A stretch of DNA of 64,000 bases from positions 4,977 to 68,976 of the forward strand of contig OX638324.1 in NCBI GenBank assembly GCA_951812825.1, written 5' to 3'. Shown here piece by piece: positions 36,403 through 44,657 of this stretch. Positions within the stretch are counted from its first letter, which is position 1; every line of letters begins with the position of its first letter. The translations under genes were made by a program, and so were the position numbers. The DNA comes from an uncultured Dehalococcoidia bacterium. Its GTDB lineage: Bacteria > Chloroflexota > Dehalococcoidia > Lucifugimonadales > GCA-2712585. Below the pieces are notes generated by a model. It made no database searches. It saw only the letters and a list, made by a program, of their open reading frames with translations, and was not told where the DNA came from.

Positions 36403-37535
36403 TGATCTCGTTCAGATAGATATGAGACGGATGGAGTTGTAAGGGAAATAGAAAGGGACCATCCTTTGGGTGAGATAGACCGAAGGAGGTCCCTTTCATG
36501 AGGGTAGTAGGACTACCCAAATCATTCTATCAGCTTTCGAAGAGGACACCAGCACAGCTGACGTTGAAAGCGCAAGATCGGATGAGGTGGGTGAGTGGCT
36601 GGAATAGGTTGAGGCAACGGGGAGTGACGGCATCGGAAGCAGCAGAGGCACTGGGACTGTCACGCTGTAGCCTGTACCGGTGGGACAAAGCCCTCAGGGA
36701 GGAAGGGCCAGCGGGCTTAGTAGACAAGAGTCGACGACCCAAGAGGGTGAGGCGGCCTACGTGGACTGTTGAGTTAGCTAGGTCAGTGCTAAAGCTGAGG
36801 GAAGAGTATCCTAGATGGGGGAAGGACAAGCTGGCGCCGTTGCTCAGGGATAAGGGCTGGGAGGTGTCCACGTCCATGGTGGGCCGCATTCTGACTCGCC
36901 TGAAGGCCCGTGGGGTGTTGAAAGAGCCGCCCCGTGACGGTATATCGGCCCGTAGGCGCACGCGTCCGCGTCCCTATGGGGTACGGAAGCCGAGGGAGTA
37001 TCAGGTCATAGAACCGGGGGACATCGTGCAGGTGGACACTTTGGACGTGCGCCCTCTGCCTGGCATGGTGCTCAAACACTTCACCGCTCGGGACATGGTC
37101 TCCAGGTGGGACGTGCTGGAGGTGCACACAAGGGCCACGTCCACACTGGCGGCCCGGTTCCTTGAGTCCATGCGGCGACGGTTTCCCTTCCCCATCAAGG
37201 CAGTTCAGGTGGATGGAGGCTCCGAGTTCATGGCGGACTTCGAGACCGCTTGCCAGAAGTTCGATATCAAACTCTTCATACTGCCGCCGCGCTCTCCCAA
37301 GCTCAACGGCCATGTGGAGCGGGCCCAGCGTACTCATACCGAAGAGTTCTACGAGCTCTATGATGGCGAACTGGATGTCTCTACCCTCAACCGGGCTCTG
37401 CTCAAATGGGAGCAAATCTACGACACCTTCCGACCTCATCACTCCCTGGACGGACTAACCCCTTTGCAGTATCTTCTCCAGTGCCACCCATCCTTGGTCC
37501 CTTCTAATCTGTCTCACATGTACTGAACGAGTACA
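36403..37535 (+). mobile_element. IS481-family insertion sequence
   Basis: Imperfect terminal IRs TGATCTCGTTCAG..TGAGAC (36403) and GTCTCAC..CTGAACGAGTACA (37535) enclosing the transposase; no TSD seen. Confidence 0.8.
36498..37526 (+). CDS. IS481-family DDE transposase
   Basis: HTH (YRW....EEG..GL.DKSRRP), PGDIVQVDT, VQVDGGSEF, P.SPKLNG.VER. Confidence 0.9.
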   Translation: MRVVGLPKSFYQLSKRTPAQLTLKAQDRMRWVSGWNRLRQRGVTASEAAEALGLSRCSLYRWDKALREEGPAGLVDKSRRPKRVRRPTWTVELARSVLKLREEYPRWGKDKLAPLLRDKGWEVSTSMVGRILTRLKARGVLKEPPRDGISARRRTRPRPYGVRKPREYQVIEPGDIVQVDTLDVRPLPGMVLKHFTARDMVSRWDVLEVHTRATSTLAARFLESMRRRFPFPIKAVQVDGGSEFMADFETACQKFDIKLFILPPRSPKLNGHVERAQRTHTEEFYELYDGELDVSTLNRALLKWEQIYDTFRPHHSLDGLTPLQYLLQCHPSLVPSNLSHMY

Positions 37536-39717: not shown

Positions 39718-40075
39718 GGGGACGCGCGGTTTCGACAGGGGAACGTCCTGGAAGAATTGCAGGTCGGGGCGCCGTCATCACCCCGTAATCAAGGCGGCAA
39801 AAAGTAACTGGCGAAAGAGAATACGCCCTAGCAGTCTAGGCATCTAGACTGCTCGTCTGCCCCCGTTAACCCCGGATGCGGGAAGCAGGCGCAATAAGCC
39901 CGGGGTGCTGCCATCTCCACGCCGGTTAAGGATGGCTCAAGATCAACCGGCTGGCCCCTTCAAACTTTGCCGGTAGAGGGTCAAGGGTGCGACATCAAAG
40001 TACCGGATAAGCCTGTAGCATATTCTTCCGAGACTTCTCCTGGACGGGGAGTTCGACCCTCCCCCGTCTCCACCA
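39718..40075 (+). ncRNA. ssrA: transfer-messenger RNA
   Basis: 5' GGGGACG..TTCGAC; 3' GGAGTTCGAC..CGTCTCCACCA with G3-U70 pair; downstream of smpB. Confidence 0.95.
39810..39839 (+). other. tmRNA tag reading frame (A)GEREYALAV*
   Basis: Follows AAGTAACT resume context; GGC GAA AGA GAA TAC GCC CTA GCA GTC TAG. Confidence 0.8.
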
Positions 40076-40161
40076 TCCCAAACCTTAACTTCCCCTTAAT
40101 TGCGCTTGCCCTTCCCTTGTAATATCATCGCAACCGCAGGCCGTTCACGCCGTGCGGATTC

Positions 40162-41814
40162 GTGAAGGCCCCGGCTTCACTTCCACCACACCTACTTGCG
40201 GGGGTTGCTTTTTCTGAAATGCAGCGAAGTCTTGTATCCGATGTCTCTGCTCCTCAGACCCTGGAGTCGATGGAGTCGAGCCTCTTCTCCGAACCTCTGC
40301 CTACCGCCGTCATAGACGTGGGCTCCGGTTCCGCCCGCGCGGTGGTCATGCAGGTCAACAGCGGCGGCGGCATAGAAATCATCGCCCAGCAACGAATTAG
40401 CCTGAACCTCATGAGTCACCTCACGCGTAAGGGCGCCCTCGACGACGAGAGCGTAGCCTCCACCGTGGAGGCGGTGGAAGACTTTGTTCAGCTTGCCCAG
40501 GGCTACGGCATAAGCTGCATACACGCCGTGGGCACTGCCGCCCTGCGGGAATCCAGCAACGTGCTGGAGGTGACGCAGACCATCGCCCGTCGCTTCGGAG
40601 TGACCCTTCGCGTCATTGATGGCTACGAGGAGGCGGCCTACTGCTTCCTGGGGGCCGTCCACGGCCTGCCCGTCAACGCCGGCCTCATGGCGGACCTGGG
40701 CGGCGGCAGCATGGAGGTGGTGGAATTCACAGAAAGGTCCCTTAAGACCCTCCACACCCTGCCCCTGGGTAGCCTTCGCATCGCCAACAGTTTTCGCCTG
40801 ACTCAACAGACGGCGGCGGAAGACGTGGCCGCCGCTCACCGGTACGCTCGAGAATCCCTCGCGCTAGCCAAGGTTCCTACGTTGTCCCACAACGTAGAAT
40901 TGGTGGGGTCCGGCGGCTCCATGCGCCTCTTTGCCAAGCTCGACCGCCGCCATAGGCATCATCCCGTGAAAAAGATCCACGGCTACAGCATCAGCCGCCG
41001 CGCCATGGAAACCCTCGTGAGCGACCTTACGGAAACGGACCTGCAGGAGCGCAGGCAGGTCCCGGGCATGAACCCGGAGCGTGCCCACTCTATCGTGGGC
41101 GGCGCCGTAGTGGCCTTGGCTCTGCTGGAGCACGCGGGCGCCAACAGGATTATGTTATCTGGCCAGGGCCTCCGGGAAGGGATCGCCCGCAACCCCCACG
41201 ATCTATCTTTGGAGCGCGGCATCATCCTTCCGCCTACGTCTACGGTCCGTCTGAACACCCTGGCTGACCTTAGCCAACGCTTCGCACCCCGCTATTCCCG
41301 TCGCGGGCCTCGAAGGTCAGAGATCGCACACAGAATCGCCGATGCCGTGTGGTGCGGAAAGTCCCAACTCCTCTCCGCATCCCTCCAAAGCGCTGCGTTC
41401 CTGTTGGACGTGGGCAGCGCCGTTGACTTCTACAACCGGCTGAACCGCACCGCCTCCCTCGTGGTGGCGTCGGATCTGCCCGGGTTCAGCCACCGGGAGT
41501 CTGCCCTGATAACGGCCATCCTGCTGACGGTGGAGAGCGGGCGGCTACCCCGCAAGTACCGTCGAAGTGGATTGCTCTCGCCCAACGACCGGGAGCGCGT
41601 GGGACAGGCCGCCGTGATTCTCCTGGCGGCAGACGAACTGGAGCGACGGTTGCCTCCCGAACTACGGGCGGACGCTGTGCAGATTTCCAGGAACGGCGGC
41701 GGGCTGCAGGTTTCCACTCCGGCCTGGTCCAGGAAGGCGGGCGATGCCATCGGCAAGCGCTGGGAGCGGGAATTCGGACAGCCAATCTTCATCCGGCGGG
41801 TGAGCCATGAATAA
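40162..41814 (+). CDS. ppx: Ppx/GppA exopolyphosphatase family
   Basis: AVIDVGSGS.R, VGTAALRE, EEA.Y, DLGGGSME, GLREG; degenerate HD C-domain; start uncertain (40162-40267). Confidence 0.9.
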   Translation: MKAPASLPPHLLAGVAFSEMQRSLVSDVSAPQTLESMESSLFSEPLPTAVIDVGSGSARAVVMQVNSGGGIEIIAQQRISLNLMSHLTRKGALDDESVASTVEAVEDFVQLAQGYGISCIHAVGTAALRESSNVLEVTQTIARRFGVTLRVIDGYEEAAYCFLGAVHGLPVNAGLMADLGGGSMEVVEFTERSLKTLHTLPLGSLRIANSFRLTQQTAAEDVAAAHRYARESLALAKVPTLSHNVELVGSGGSMRLFAKLDRRHRHHPVKKIHGYSISRRAMETLVSDLTETDLQERRQVPGMNPERAHSIVGGAVVALALLEHAGANRIMLSGQGLREGIARNPHDLSLERGIILPPTSTVRLNTLADLSQRFAPRYSRRGPRRSEIAHRIADAVWCGKSQLLSASLQSAAFLLDVGSAVDFYNRLNRTASLVVASDLPGFSHRESALITAILLTVESGRLPRKYRRSGLLSPNDRERVGQAAVILLAADELERRLPPELRADAVQISRNGGGLQVSTPAWSRKAGDAIGKRWEREFGQPIFIRRVSHE

Positions 41815-42634
41815 TTCCGACCTGAACATTAACTTCCCCATGGGCACCAGGTTCGGAGACCACCCCGACGACGGCAAGTACCCCGGGCGGCTGATAATCG
41901 TGGAAGGGATCGACGGTTCCGGCAAGAGCACCCAGATAGACCTGCTGGCCAAGTGGCTTACCAGCATGGGCTACGTCACCGTCTTCACCGAGTGGAACTC
42001 GTCTCCAATAGTCCGGCGCACCACAAAGCGGGGCAAAGACCAGCGTCTGCTCACCCCCATGTCCTTCAGCCTCATCCACGCGGCGGACTTTGCCAACCGC
42101 GTCTATACGCAGATACTTCCCGCTCTCAAATCGGGCACCGTGGTGCTGGCCGACCGGTATGTCTTCACCGCCTTCGCTCGCGACGCTGCAAGGGGCGTAA
42201 ACCGGGACTGGCTCCGCCGCATCTACTCCTTCGCCGTTCAGCCCTCGCTGGCCCTGTATTTCAAAGTGCCCCTGCAAGAGTCCATCAGGCGGATAGTCGC
42301 CGGTAGGGAATCCATTGGATACTACGAGTCCGGCCAGGACCTTGATCTAGCTCCCAGCCGGGAGGAATCCTTCCGCACCTTTCAGCAGCGGCTCCTGGAC
42401 GAGTACGACCGGCTCACCAATGAGTTTGAGCTGGTTGCTATCGACGCCACCGACACCATATCAAAGCAGCAAGAACTAGTGCGGAAGTACGTGGAACCTC
42501 TGCTGCCCGGCCTTATGGAGATTCACGGAGACAGCCTGCCCGAGGCCCTCAGCAGCGCCGGCCTGATAGGGCGTTACGTTCGTCGGTCCGGCTCACGCAG
42601 GATTCCGGAAACTGTTGGAGGCCCCGATGGCTAG
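41807..42634 (+). CDS. thymidylate-kinase-fold protein A (candidate PPK3-type subunit)
   Basis: VEGIDGSGKST, ADRY; lacks Tmk TREPG and SxxAYQ; 8-nt overlap with ppx. Confidence 0.85.
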   Translation: MNNSDLNINFPMGTRFGDHPDDGKYPGRLIIVEGIDGSGKSTQIDLLAKWLTSMGYVTVFTEWNSSPIVRRTTKRGKDQRLLTPMSFSLIHAADFANRVYTQILPALKSGTVVLADRYVFTAFARDAARGVNRDWLRRIYSFAVQPSLALYFKVPLQESIRRIVAGRESIGYYESGQDLDLAPSREESFRTFQQRLLDEYDRLTNEFELVAIDATDTISKQQELVRKYVEPLLPGLMEIHGDSLPEALSSAGLIGRYVRRSGSRRIPETVGGPDG

Positions 42635-43385
42635 CCCCAATGGAGCCTCAAGGGATGCAGACGGCGCACTGAATGACGGAGAGCGGCTGATGACTACGCC
42701 GAAGTTCTACGGTCATACTCCGCTGGGCCTTGGCAAGATTCACATGCCGGGCAGACTCATCGTCATAGAGGGGACCGACGGCGTGGGCCGCTCTACCCAG
42801 ATTGCCCTATTGAAGGAATGGCTGGAGACCCAAGGCCACGCCGTGCTCGATACGGGCTTTCGACGCTCCGAGCTTACCGGCGACGGCATAGACCGGGCCA
42901 TGCGGGGACACACCCTGGACCACGTAACCCTCAACCTCTTCTACGCCACCGACTTCTGGGACCGGATGGAGAAGGGCATCATCCCTGCGCTTCAGGCGGG
43001 AATGATTGTGCTCGCAGACCGATACATCTACTCCATCATCGCCCGGGCGCGGGTGCGCGGCGTCCCAGCCCGCTGGCTGGATGACGTGCTGGAGTTTGCC
43101 ATTGTGCCCCACCAGGTCTTCTACCTGGATATAGACGTGGAGCAGCTGCTTCCCAGGATGCTGGCAAACAGAGAACTGGACCATTGGGAGTCCGGCGAGG
43201 ACTTCCTCCGCAGGCCGGACCGGCATTCCAGCTTTGTTGTCTACCAGAATGCCCTGCTGCATGAGTTCCGCAACCTGGCCAAGCAGTACCGCTTCGTGAC
43301 CATTGATGCCCGCCGCAGCGTTAGGGAGGTCTTCAAAAACCTCCAGGGCGGCGTCCGCATCGAGCTCTCAAATATGCCGGGCTAG
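42627..43385 (+). CDS. thymidylate-kinase-fold protein B (candidate PPK3-type subunit)
   Basis: IEGTDGVGRST (Walker A Lys replaced by Arg), ADRY, HWESGED; GGAGG RBS; 8-nt overlap with protein A. Confidence 0.85.
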   Translation: MASPNGASRDADGALNDGERLMTTPKFYGHTPLGLGKIHMPGRLIVIEGTDGVGRSTQIALLKEWLETQGHAVLDTGFRRSELTGDGIDRAMRGHTLDHVTLNLFYATDFWDRMEKGIIPALQAGMIVLADRYIYSIIARARVRGVPARWLDDVLEFAIVPHQVFYLDIDVEQLLPRMLANRELDHWESGEDFLRRPDRHSSFVVYQNALLHEFRNLAKQYRFVTIDARRSVREVFKNLQGGVRIELSNMPG

Positions 43386-43397
43386 AATTATCCCAAA

Positions 43398-43462
43398 CCC
43401 CTGCCCTCTCGACGGGGGAAGGTTGGAGCCTGTCCTGAGCTTGTAGAAGGGATGGGGGTGAA
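43398..43462 (+). repeat. composite REP (14138-type hairpin with nested GAGCCTGTCCTGAGCTTGTAGAAG insert)
   Basis: Flanks match 14138-14175; insert matches 8837. Confidence 0.7.
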
Positions 43463-43469
43463 TCGCCAT

Positions 43470-44657
43470 CTAAGCCAAAATTCGCTCCCCGTATAGGCGG
43501 ACGGCATTGTCCCACAGAATCTTGCGCTTGCTCTCGTCGCAGATGGGCTGGGCAATGAAGTCCGGCAGCGCCTTCTCCGGGTCCGGCGCGTCTGGATGAG
43601 AGTAGTCCGTGTTCCATACGATGTTGTCGTTGCCTAGGGCGTCCACCACACCCTTCAGGTGGAACTCGTCCGGGTCGCAGGCCACAAAGCCTTGGCGGAG
43701 GAAGTACTCGCTGGGCTTCAGGGGCAGCGGGTCCATGTCGTACCACATCCCCTGCCGCTTGTCCCTCATGCCGTGGTCGTTGAGGCGGCCCAGCCAGAAG
43801 GGCAGCCAGCCGGCGTTGCCTTCCAGGAAGGACACCCTCAGCTTGGGGAACCGCTCCATCACGCCCAGGAAAATGAGGTGTCCCAGGGAGATCATGTTCT
43901 CGAAGGGGAAGCCGATGGCGTGTTCAAGGGCCACTTCGGGGCCGGAAACCTCGGAGCGGGGCTGGTAGCGTACGCCGGTATGTGGCTCGCCGCTGCTGAC
44001 GCCGTGGAAGGAGACGGGGAAGTCCAGCTCCTCTGCCAGGGCCCAGAAGGGGTCGTAGGCCGGGTCGTGCCAGGGGCGGCCCTTCTCTGCGCGGGGCATC
44101 GTGACCGTAACCGCGCCAAGCTCATCTATCACCCGCCGCGTTTCCGTCACCAACCCTTCGATGTCGTGCTGATTTGGAAGCACGCCCACCATCTTGATGC
44201 GGCTGGGGGCTGTGTCGCAGAAGTTTCTGGAGAAGTTGTTATAAGCGCGGGCGCAGGCCCAGAGGAGACCCTGATCGCGGCCAGAGACGCGTAGCGGGTG
44301 GGGGCCGTTGTCAATCAACACCTGCTTGTCCCAGCCAAGCGCGTCCATGTGCTCAATGCGGCTCTCCGGCGTGAACCCCTTGGCGTAGGCCGCGCCGTAC
44401 TTCTCGGCCATCACGTCGCGGTCGTCAATAGTGACCTCTCGGTTGACTCCCGCTCCCTGGATGGTGGTCTTGACCCGGTTTCCCTCGGGGAAGATCTCAC
44501 ATTCCATGAAGCTGCGGCTGGCTCCAACGCGGCTCTCCGACGCGGGGCCGACGATGGGCCTGCGGTGATAGTATTCCGGCTCCATAAACTCGCTCCACAG
44601 GTCATGGGGCTCCGTAATGTGCGCGTCTGAGTCGATAACCTTGAATTCCTTGTACAT
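43470..44657 (-). CDS. amidohydrolase_2 family protein
   Basis: VIDSDAHITEP, AYNNF, FHG, FLEGNAGW, WNTDYSHPD. Confidence 0.9.
   Translation of the reverse strand: MYKEFKVIDSDAHITEPHDLWSEFMEPEYYHRRPIVGPASESRVGASRSFMECEIFPEGNRVKTTIQGAGVNREVTIDDRDVMAEKYGAAYAKGFTPESRIEHMDALGWDKQVLIDNGPHPLRVSGRDQGLLWACARAYNNFSRNFCDTAPSRIKMVGVLPNQHDIEGLVTETRRVIDELGAVTVTMPRAEKGRPWHDPAYDPFWALAEELDFPVSFHGVSSGEPHTGVRYQPRSEVSGPEVALEHAIGFPFENMISLGHLIFLGVMERFPKLRVSFLEGNAGWLPFWLGRLNDHGMRDKRQGMWYDMDPLPLKPSEYFLRQGFVACDPDEFHLKGVVDALGNDNIVWNTDYSHPDAPDPEKALPDFIAQPICDESKRKILWDNAVRLYGERILA

Follow-up and report, generated by a model that had tools for sequence, protein, structure and literature searches.

What do two consecutive genes, both named for thymidylate kinase, do directly behind an exopolyphosphatase gene in a bacterium? 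The question is raised by a 64,000 nt stretch of contig OX638324.1 (the window) from an uncultured Dehalococcoidia bacterium of the Chloroflexota, whose open reading frame (ORF) listing contains three same-strand, head-to-tail ORFs: ppx, kinase A and kinase B (A and B throughout). We consider it very likely that they constitute a three-gene polyphosphate (polyP) operon, ppx-cPPK3-rPPK3, the bacterial orthologue of the saci_2018-2020 module of Sulfolobus acidocaldarius. This reading is built on orthology, gene organisation, motifs, fold, a canonical tmk elsewhere in the genome and the absence of other polyphosphate kinases (PPKs), all of which were observed directly. The heteromeric polyphosphate kinase of S. 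acidocaldarius, SaPPK3, consists of Saci_2019 (cPPK3, the catalytic subunit) and Saci_2020 (rPPK3), which is inactive alone and as a partner boosts activity approximately ten-fold; the two assemble in Sulfolobus as an α2β2 tetramer, their operon (saci_2017-2021) includes ppx, and the equilibrium lies towards ATP, with polyP synthesis confined to high ATP/ADP ratios (Höfmann et al., J Biol Chem 2026, PMC12995831). A preliminary description of the window had pointed to a Sulfolobus gene pair of this kind, annotated as thymidylate kinases beside ppx and reported as PPK3, and this is the paper in question. The organism was there called SAR202-like; its nearest named relative is a Dehalococcoidia (Chloroflexota) MAG.

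A and B were aligned with the canonical thymidylate kinase (Tmk) of the host genome and with T. thermophilus Tmk. The P-loop reads EGIDGSGKST in A and EGTDGVGRST in B, where the Walker A Lys is replaced by Arg, and DRY is present in both proteins; each has the P-loop fold of the thymidine monophosphate (dTMP) kinase superfamily, with P-loop, DRX and LID elements. The residues by which thymidylate kinases (EC 2.7.4.9) bind dTMP, namely the TREPGG loop, the Phe/Arg of LLFxAxR and the Gln of SxxAYQ, are missing from A as well as from B. At the TQEPDGT/TREPGG position A has TEWNSS and B has TGFRRS; the S(T/S)xAYQ position reads TAFARD and SIIARA, and the LLFxAxR position FSLIHAADF and LNLFYATDF, respectively. 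A (Y/W)ESGxD motif is shared by the two proteins (YYESGQD in A, HWESGED in B). The alignment thereby bore out what the preliminary description had read from the letters: a Tmk-type P-loop and DRY in both kinases, no TREPG or SxxAYQ signature in either, an Arg for the Walker A Lys of B (GVGRST), and a common (Y/W)ESG.D motif.

Profile searches gave weak matches to Pfam Thymidylate_kin (PF02223; 79.4 bits for A and 87.4 bits for B), and PF02223 and AAA_33 were the only families returned by a Pfam scan of the two proteins. With the NCBIfam dTMP-kinase model, A and B scored 84.0 and 83.5 bits against a cut-off of 83.25, and passing by less than 1 bit explains why sources name them dTMP kinases. 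Assignment of A and B to PPK2 was also considered and was rejected, as neither matches PF03976.

The affinities of the two proteins lie with PPK3. When A was compared with all PDB sequences, the best match was S. tokodaii STK_15430 (2plr/5h70; E 4.5e-50), with true Tmk at 7e-14; B likewise matched STK_15430 (2plr; E 4.4e-33), the best true Tmk reaching ~1e-14. STK_15430, whose crystal structure is represented by PDB entries 2plr, 4nzy, 4rzx and 5h70, is a homologue of Saci_2019 (PMC12995831), and A aligns with it from end to end at 42-43% identity. A tree of 85 sequences was built with IQ-TREE from 35 A-type and 33 B-type proteins and 17 canonical Tmks, host Tmk and T. thermophilus 5x7j among them; in it, canonical Tmks were split from A+B with a Shimodaira-Hasegawa-like approximate likelihood ratio support (SH-aLRT) of 99. 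A was grouped with the S. tokodaii and Metallosphaera cPPK3 proteins, while the B clade (support 87, core 99) includes Metallosphaera rPPK3. A phylogeny had been proposed as a check on the preliminary description, and it placed A and B within the PPK3 clade, as cPPK3 and rPPK3 respectively, and outside bona fide Tmk. Tree neighbours were identical for the two proteins, first a Dehalococcoidia locus (L083) and then one from Phycisphaerae (L066), which argues that the pair was inherited together.

An AlphaFold2 (AF2) model of A (pLDDT, the predicted local distance difference test score, 85.4; predicted template-modelling score, pTM, 0.83) had 4nzy/5h70 as its top Foldseek matches (TMt 0.88-0.92 for the two entries, 0.91-0.92 for 5h70). 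Relative to the 213-aa Sulfolobaceae enzyme, A is extended at the N-terminus (residues 8-27, modelled with confidence) and has a tail at the C-terminus (233-259). Residues that are invariant in the family and present in A comprise K40, W63, N64, S65, H91, D116-R117-Y118, R125, D126, R129 and R162, and the basic residues K77, R98, R117, R125, R129, R137, R162, R167 and R226 are kept. A thus combines unconserved dTMP-binding residues with conserved basic residues, the pattern that marks cPPK3.

An alternative is that A, B or both are unusual thymidylate kinases, nucleoside monophosphate (NMP) kinases with an altered specificity, and that their link to ppx reflects no more than co-regulation of phosphate and nucleotide metabolism. 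STK_15430 was first described as a thymidylate kinase and its PDB entries are titled dTMP kinase; all source annotations of A and B read 'dTMP kinase', in keeping with the narrowly passed NCBIfam cut-off. However, besides the loss of dTMP-contacting motifs from A and B, a canonical tmk is present in the host genome (one contig, 2.47 Mb, 95.7% complete). This gene was the third PF02223 match, at 150.7 bits, and its product, which carries TQEPDGT and STMAYQ, hits T. thermophilus Tmk with an E-value of 1.5e-44. A clear canonical Tmk was likewise found in 22 of 26 diverse PPK3-bearing genomes, which included 9 with PPK1 and 18 with PPK2. In the Sulfolobus system, formation of dTDP was seen for Saci_0893 and for neither Saci_2019 nor Saci_2020 (PMC12995831). 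Pairing with ppx, PPK2, CHAD and SixA, and fusions to Ppx domain III and an inorganic pyrophosphatase (see below), also point to polyP/pyrophosphate chemistry, and we regard an NMP kinase as highly improbable. The narrower proposal that A or B is the sole Tmk of the genome was rejected, since the canonical tmk is present.

Searches of the 95.7%-complete genome returned no match to PPK1 (PF02503), PPK2 (PF03976) or CHAD. The A-B pair is therefore the only candidate enzyme for polyP synthesis and ATP regeneration in a genome that lacks PPK1 and PPK2. Among 18 relatives tested, PPK1 was found in none and PPK2 in 3. A canonical tmk elsewhere and the absence of ppk1/ppk2 were both listed beforehand as things to look for, and both were found to hold. 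The suspicion that the two kinases are mis-annotated as tmk is upheld by their position in the PPK3 clade, the replaced dTMP motifs and the separate tmk, and the suggestion that A is catalytic and B structural or regulatory fits cPPK3/rPPK3 orthology and the altered Walker A of B.

If the cassette operates as its Sulfolobus counterpart does, A would be a P-loop kinase, descended from thymidylate kinase, that holds ATP or ADP in the classical site and polyP in a basic cleft where Tmk has its dTMP pocket, and it would catalyse the reversible reaction polyP(n) + ADP <-> polyP(n-1) + ATP. B would be an obligate paralogous partner that assembles with A (as α2β2 in Sulfolobus) and lifts the activity of A approximately ten-fold. 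The PPX protein is predicted to hydrolyse polyP to phosphate. The A-B pair would accordingly be expected to synthesise polyP at a high ATP/ADP ratio and to regenerate ATP from polyP at low energy charge.

Several points weigh against assigning the cassette to PPK3 in this manner. Catalytic activity, direction and stoichiometry are carried over by analogy from the Sulfolobus enzyme, and the identity between A and STK_15430 is only 42-43%. Position 171 of A, in the LID/YYEAG region, is Gly where 95% of the family has Lys, and ESG stands in place of EAG, as in part of its Chloroflexota-type relatives. With PPK2 in 18 and PPK1 in 9 of the 26 PPK3-bearing genomes, replacement of other PPKs is not a general role of the pair. 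Finally, B contains ADRY and so retains the catalytic DRX Arg that Sulfolobaceae rPPK3 lacks, which makes the published cause of rPPK3 inactivity inapplicable here.

The genomic setting of the pair follows that of PPK3. As described for the PPK3 clade, which is mainly bacterial, members own a separate canonical dTMP kinase and predicted operons hold both subunits (PMC12995831). In the window, the cPPK3 and rPPK3 paralogues A and B sit side by side in one operon, and a polyP gene, ppx, lies directly upstream and overlaps A. A scan with one genome per species gave more than 525 loci, and locus counts were taken from the best 80. These 80 represent at least 12 phyla: the archaeal loci come from Sulfolobaceae and Nitrososphaerota, and the bacterial loci from Acidobacteriota, Nitrospirota, Planctomycetota, Thermodesulfobacteriota, Bacteroidota, Verrucomicrobiota, Binatota, Dormiibacterota, Melainabacteria, Hydrogenedentota, Pseudomonadota and Chloroflexota. 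B directly follows A in 76 of the 80 loci, and PPX is found within 4 kb of the pair in 56. The Metallosphaera locus has the order SixA-PPX-cPPK3-rPPK3-CHAD, as published for Sulfolobus. At least 7,700 protein clusters each were found for A and for B; the names listed were all of thymidylate-kinase type, and most clusters were nameless. In three genomes of Acidobacteriota, Dormiibacterota or Binatota, a PPK2 gene directly adjoins one of two A/B pairs (Table 1).

Approximately 30 protein clusters (427-532 aa) are natural A-linker-B fusions. A single possible fusion is mentioned in the PPK3 paper, where it is treated as a potential assembly error (PMC12995831). In fusions with both P-loops readable, DRY occurs in each half, accompanied by GSGK[ST]T in the first and by GxGR[ST]T in the second. 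Fusion families of 526-532 aa and 486-490 aa are conserved, and some clusters have 9-20 members (including P0266-P0286 and P0262/P0263/P0273). One natural fusion was modelled with AF2 on an alignment restricted to fusion proteins; although it has a disordered linker of 50 residues, the model reached pLDDT 82 and pTM 0.79, with 5h70 as its best PDB match (TMt 0.93). The pTM of this model suggests a defined arrangement of A and B.

Fusions to other domains were also observed. A-B-HD/Ppx-GppA domain III proteins (650-696 aa) and proteins combining a cPPK3-like domain with InPase (PF18823, inorganic pyrophosphatase; 968-1610 aa) are represented by P0382, P0383, P0474 and P0485, and these architectures link the family with phosphoanhydride metabolism in a way that does not depend on gene neighbourhood. 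A cPPK3-type domain (GLDGSGKST ... YYEAGLD) that is 44-48% identical to A occurs in a set of large fusions (P0429, P0451, P0453, P0448 and P0491). One type joins an MFS transporter, a cPPK3-like domain and DUF2252/APH (771-1276 aa); another, present in the EukProt transcriptome of Ancoracysta twista, a protist, joins SPX, a cPPK3-like domain and DUF2252 (794 aa). The SPX- and MFS-type proteins may be eukaryotic, PPK3-derived polyphosphate enzymes. They are unmentioned in the text of PMC12995831, and a search of the literature collection used here returned none.

The inactivity of rPPK3 has been attributed to loss of the Arg in its DRX motif (PMC12995831), and in this respect B belongs to a different and larger group. 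All 20 Sulfolobaceae rPPK3 sequences have DGY; their Walker A residue is Arg in 14 cases and Lys in the other 6. Among 74 bacterial and thaumarchaeal B sequences, DRY is present in every one, Walker A Arg in 95%, and R140, R144 and R177 are conserved at 95-100%. Because DGY was found only in Sulfolobaceae, loss of the DRX Arg marks that branch and not the family. The Arg noted for B in the preliminary description is accordingly a hallmark of partner subunits in general, with the DGY form as a derived branch.

A variant of the polyP operon explanation, rather than an alternative to it, is that bacterial-type B keeps a functional phosphate/nucleotide site, formed by DRY, the LID Arg and the Arg P-loop, and is not an inert scaffold. 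It could provide a second specialised site, for example one that holds the polyP end, or act as an adenylate/polyP sensor that gates A. The conservation of DRY, Walker A Arg and R140/R144/R177 across the 74 sequences is consistent with this, as is the retention of GxGR[ST]T and DRY in the B half of all fusion proteins, and the sole type assayed, Sulfolobaceae rPPK3, differs in its invariant DGY. In P-loop enzymes generally, however, a change of the Walker A Lys to Arg abolishes phosphoryl transfer, and E62, W63, N64, H91 and D126, which are invariant in A-type proteins, are not retained in B. Saci_2020 is also inactive alone (PMC12995831). We consider a functional site in B unlikely. With similar reservation, the B subunit seen here, in about 95% of bacterial and thaumarchaeal pairs and in all fusions may be proposed as a distinct partner type, a Walker A Arg pseudo-kinase with DRY clamp and LID Arg retained. 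Such a partner would hold a phosphate ligand, either an adenylate or the end of polyP, and thereby gate A or complement it. If this were true, the published inactive-scaffold rPPK3, which derives from the DGY-type Sulfolobus protein, would be a derived special case. In most members the regulatory subunit is unlike the characterised one, which poses a biochemical question and leaves the type of system unchanged. A partner subunit that retains DRY and has a Walker A Arg is the sole point at which the locus goes beyond the literature considered here.

The coordinates of the cassette and of other features are collected in Table 1. The ppx product matched Pfam PF02541 (Ppx-GppA) at E 9.2e-49, together with a weak domain III match, and scored 242.7 bits with TIGR03706, under its cut-off of 307. 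It is 79-86% identical in 8 genus relatives, where its position is unchanged. The true start of ppx may lie downstream of the GTG, as family matches open at residues 48-61. A scan for promoters and terminators found no convincing promoter in the tmRNA-ppx gap and no terminator past B.

Table 1. Coordinates of the ppx-A-B cassette, its start and overlap signals, and other features. Positions are those of the window unless a genome and contig are given.
Feature	Position	Strand	Remarks
ppx, Ppx/GppA-family exopolyphosphatase	40162..41814	+	550 aa, GTG start
A, cPPK3 orthologue	41807..42634	+	275 aa
B, rPPK3 orthologue	42627..43385	+	starts ATG 42627 or ATG 42690; ORF opens 42615
8-nt overlap, ppx stop/A start	41807..41814	+	ATGAATAA
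8-nt overlap, A stop/upstream candidate B start	42627..42634	+	ATGGCTAG
GGAGG	42617..42621	+	5 nt 5′ of ATG 42627
ssrA (tmRNA)	39718..40075	+	upstream boundary of the cassette, context only; ARAGORN; Rfam RF00023, 147.4 bits
IS481-type transposase/integrase ORF	36498-37526	+	342 aa
Canonical tmk of the host genome	G000:C1:2104005-2104565		
A/B pair adjoined by PPK2	G048:C1:743545-745829		
A/B pair adjoined by PPK2	G061:C391:9168-11523		
A/B pair adjoined by PPK2	G062:C132:89547-91807		

Both 8-nt overlaps had at first been taken to indicate translational coupling. The overlap of ppx and A is kept in all 8 genus relatives examined. The A/B overlap hangs on ATG 42627, which was compared between the window and nine relatives (eight of the genus plus G030). 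This codon was seen in the window and in 4 of the 9 relatives; the other 5 have no B-frame start at all upstream of MTTPKFYGH, and the 21-aa extension that it would add is unconserved even in the relatives that have it. The start that is conserved family-wide is ATG 42690 (MTTPKFYGH), located 55 nt past the A stop, and B homologues are mostly 231 aa long. Since the upstream start is missing in 5 of 9 relatives and the extension is unconserved, ATG 42690 is the family-wide B start and the A/B overlap a trait of a sub-lineage. Translational coupling of A to B through the overlap is plausible rather than established.

The cassette opens 87 nt past ssrA, which is preceded by ctpA and smpB, and this arrangement is common to all 8 genus relatives that carry the cassette. 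The site was compared between window positions 39718-43470 and loci L154 (G006), L155 (G001) and L114-L122. Two genus members without the cassette keep both ctpA-smpB-ssrA and the downstream amidohydrolase-amidohydrolase-amidase genes, and in each an unrelated single gene occupies the slot. The interval from ssrA to the amidohydrolase gene contains ppx-A-B in 9 genomes, a DapA-like 335-aa ORF in G006 and, in G001, an unrelated ORF of 384 aa; the flanks are fully syntenic. As the slot holds different genes among members of the genus, at least three alternative cargoes use this variable tmRNA site, the cassette among them. This agrees with the patchy distribution of the pair in the host's order, where 10 of 13 genomes from the genus carry it, 0 of 7 from sister genera, and 1 of 21 other families.

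Such a site raises the possibility that the cassette is a recent passenger, poorly expressed or decaying, with no physiological role. The other genes that fill the slot in G001 and G006 and the patchiness within the order would suit a passenger. All three ORFs are intact, however, the proteins are 79-95% identical across 8 genus relatives with the ppx/A overlap kept, and every family-invariant catalytic residue of A except K171 is retained, so that a passenger without a role seems to us extremely unlikely. No integrase flanks the cassette, and a search downstream of B for an att-type repeat of the tmRNA 3′ end found none. The IS481-type ORF listed in Table 1 lies upstream of ctpA-smpB-ssrA and does not adjoin the cassette. 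In G002, the final 27-35 nt of the tmRNA are repeated in five additional copies that resemble att scars.

PPK3 and bacterial members that adjoin ppx have already been published, and the locus is therefore not a new candidate system. Its identification as a polyP operon corrects a widespread mis-annotation of A- and B-type proteins as thymidylate kinases, and it supplies a concrete candidate enzyme for the synthesis and use of polyP in a Chloroflexota lineage that lacks PPK1 and PPK2, a point relevant to how uncultured bacteria store phosphorus and energy. The PPK3 pair itself extends over at least 12 phyla, often together with PPK2 or PPK1.

Compared with known systems, A and B resemble canonical Tmk (PF02223, TIGR00041; 5x7j and the host tmk) in superfamily, fold, P-loop, DRY, LID and conserved ATP-site residues; they differ from it by a 12-residue insertion after the LID and by Pfam scores that are approximately half those of true Tmk. 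PPK2 (PF03976) is comparable as a P-loop kinase that interconverts polyP and nucleotides, with a preference for phosphorylating nucleoside diphosphates, but it lies outside the dTMP kinase superfamily, and the ADP and polyP sites are swapped between PPK3 and PPK2 (PMC12995831). Two-domain class II PPK2 pairs an active unit with a degenerate paralogous one, and the A-B fusions resemble its layout. From SaPPK3 the cassette differs in its bacterial host, where SixA and CHAD genes are absent from operon and genome alike; in the size of A (275 aa against 213 aa, with conserved N- and C-terminal extensions); and in a B subunit that has DRY, where Sulfolobaceae have DGY, together with Walker A Arg, a residue shared by 95% of the B subunits from bacteria and Thaumarchaeota. 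With SaPPK3 it shares the gene order ppx-cPPK3-rPPK3 (checked in Metallosphaera javensis, L004), a host genome with a separate canonical dTMP kinase and without PPK1 or PPK2, and, in A, the cPPK3 signatures GSGKS, TEWNSS, FSLIHAxDF and DRYxxTAxARDxxRG.

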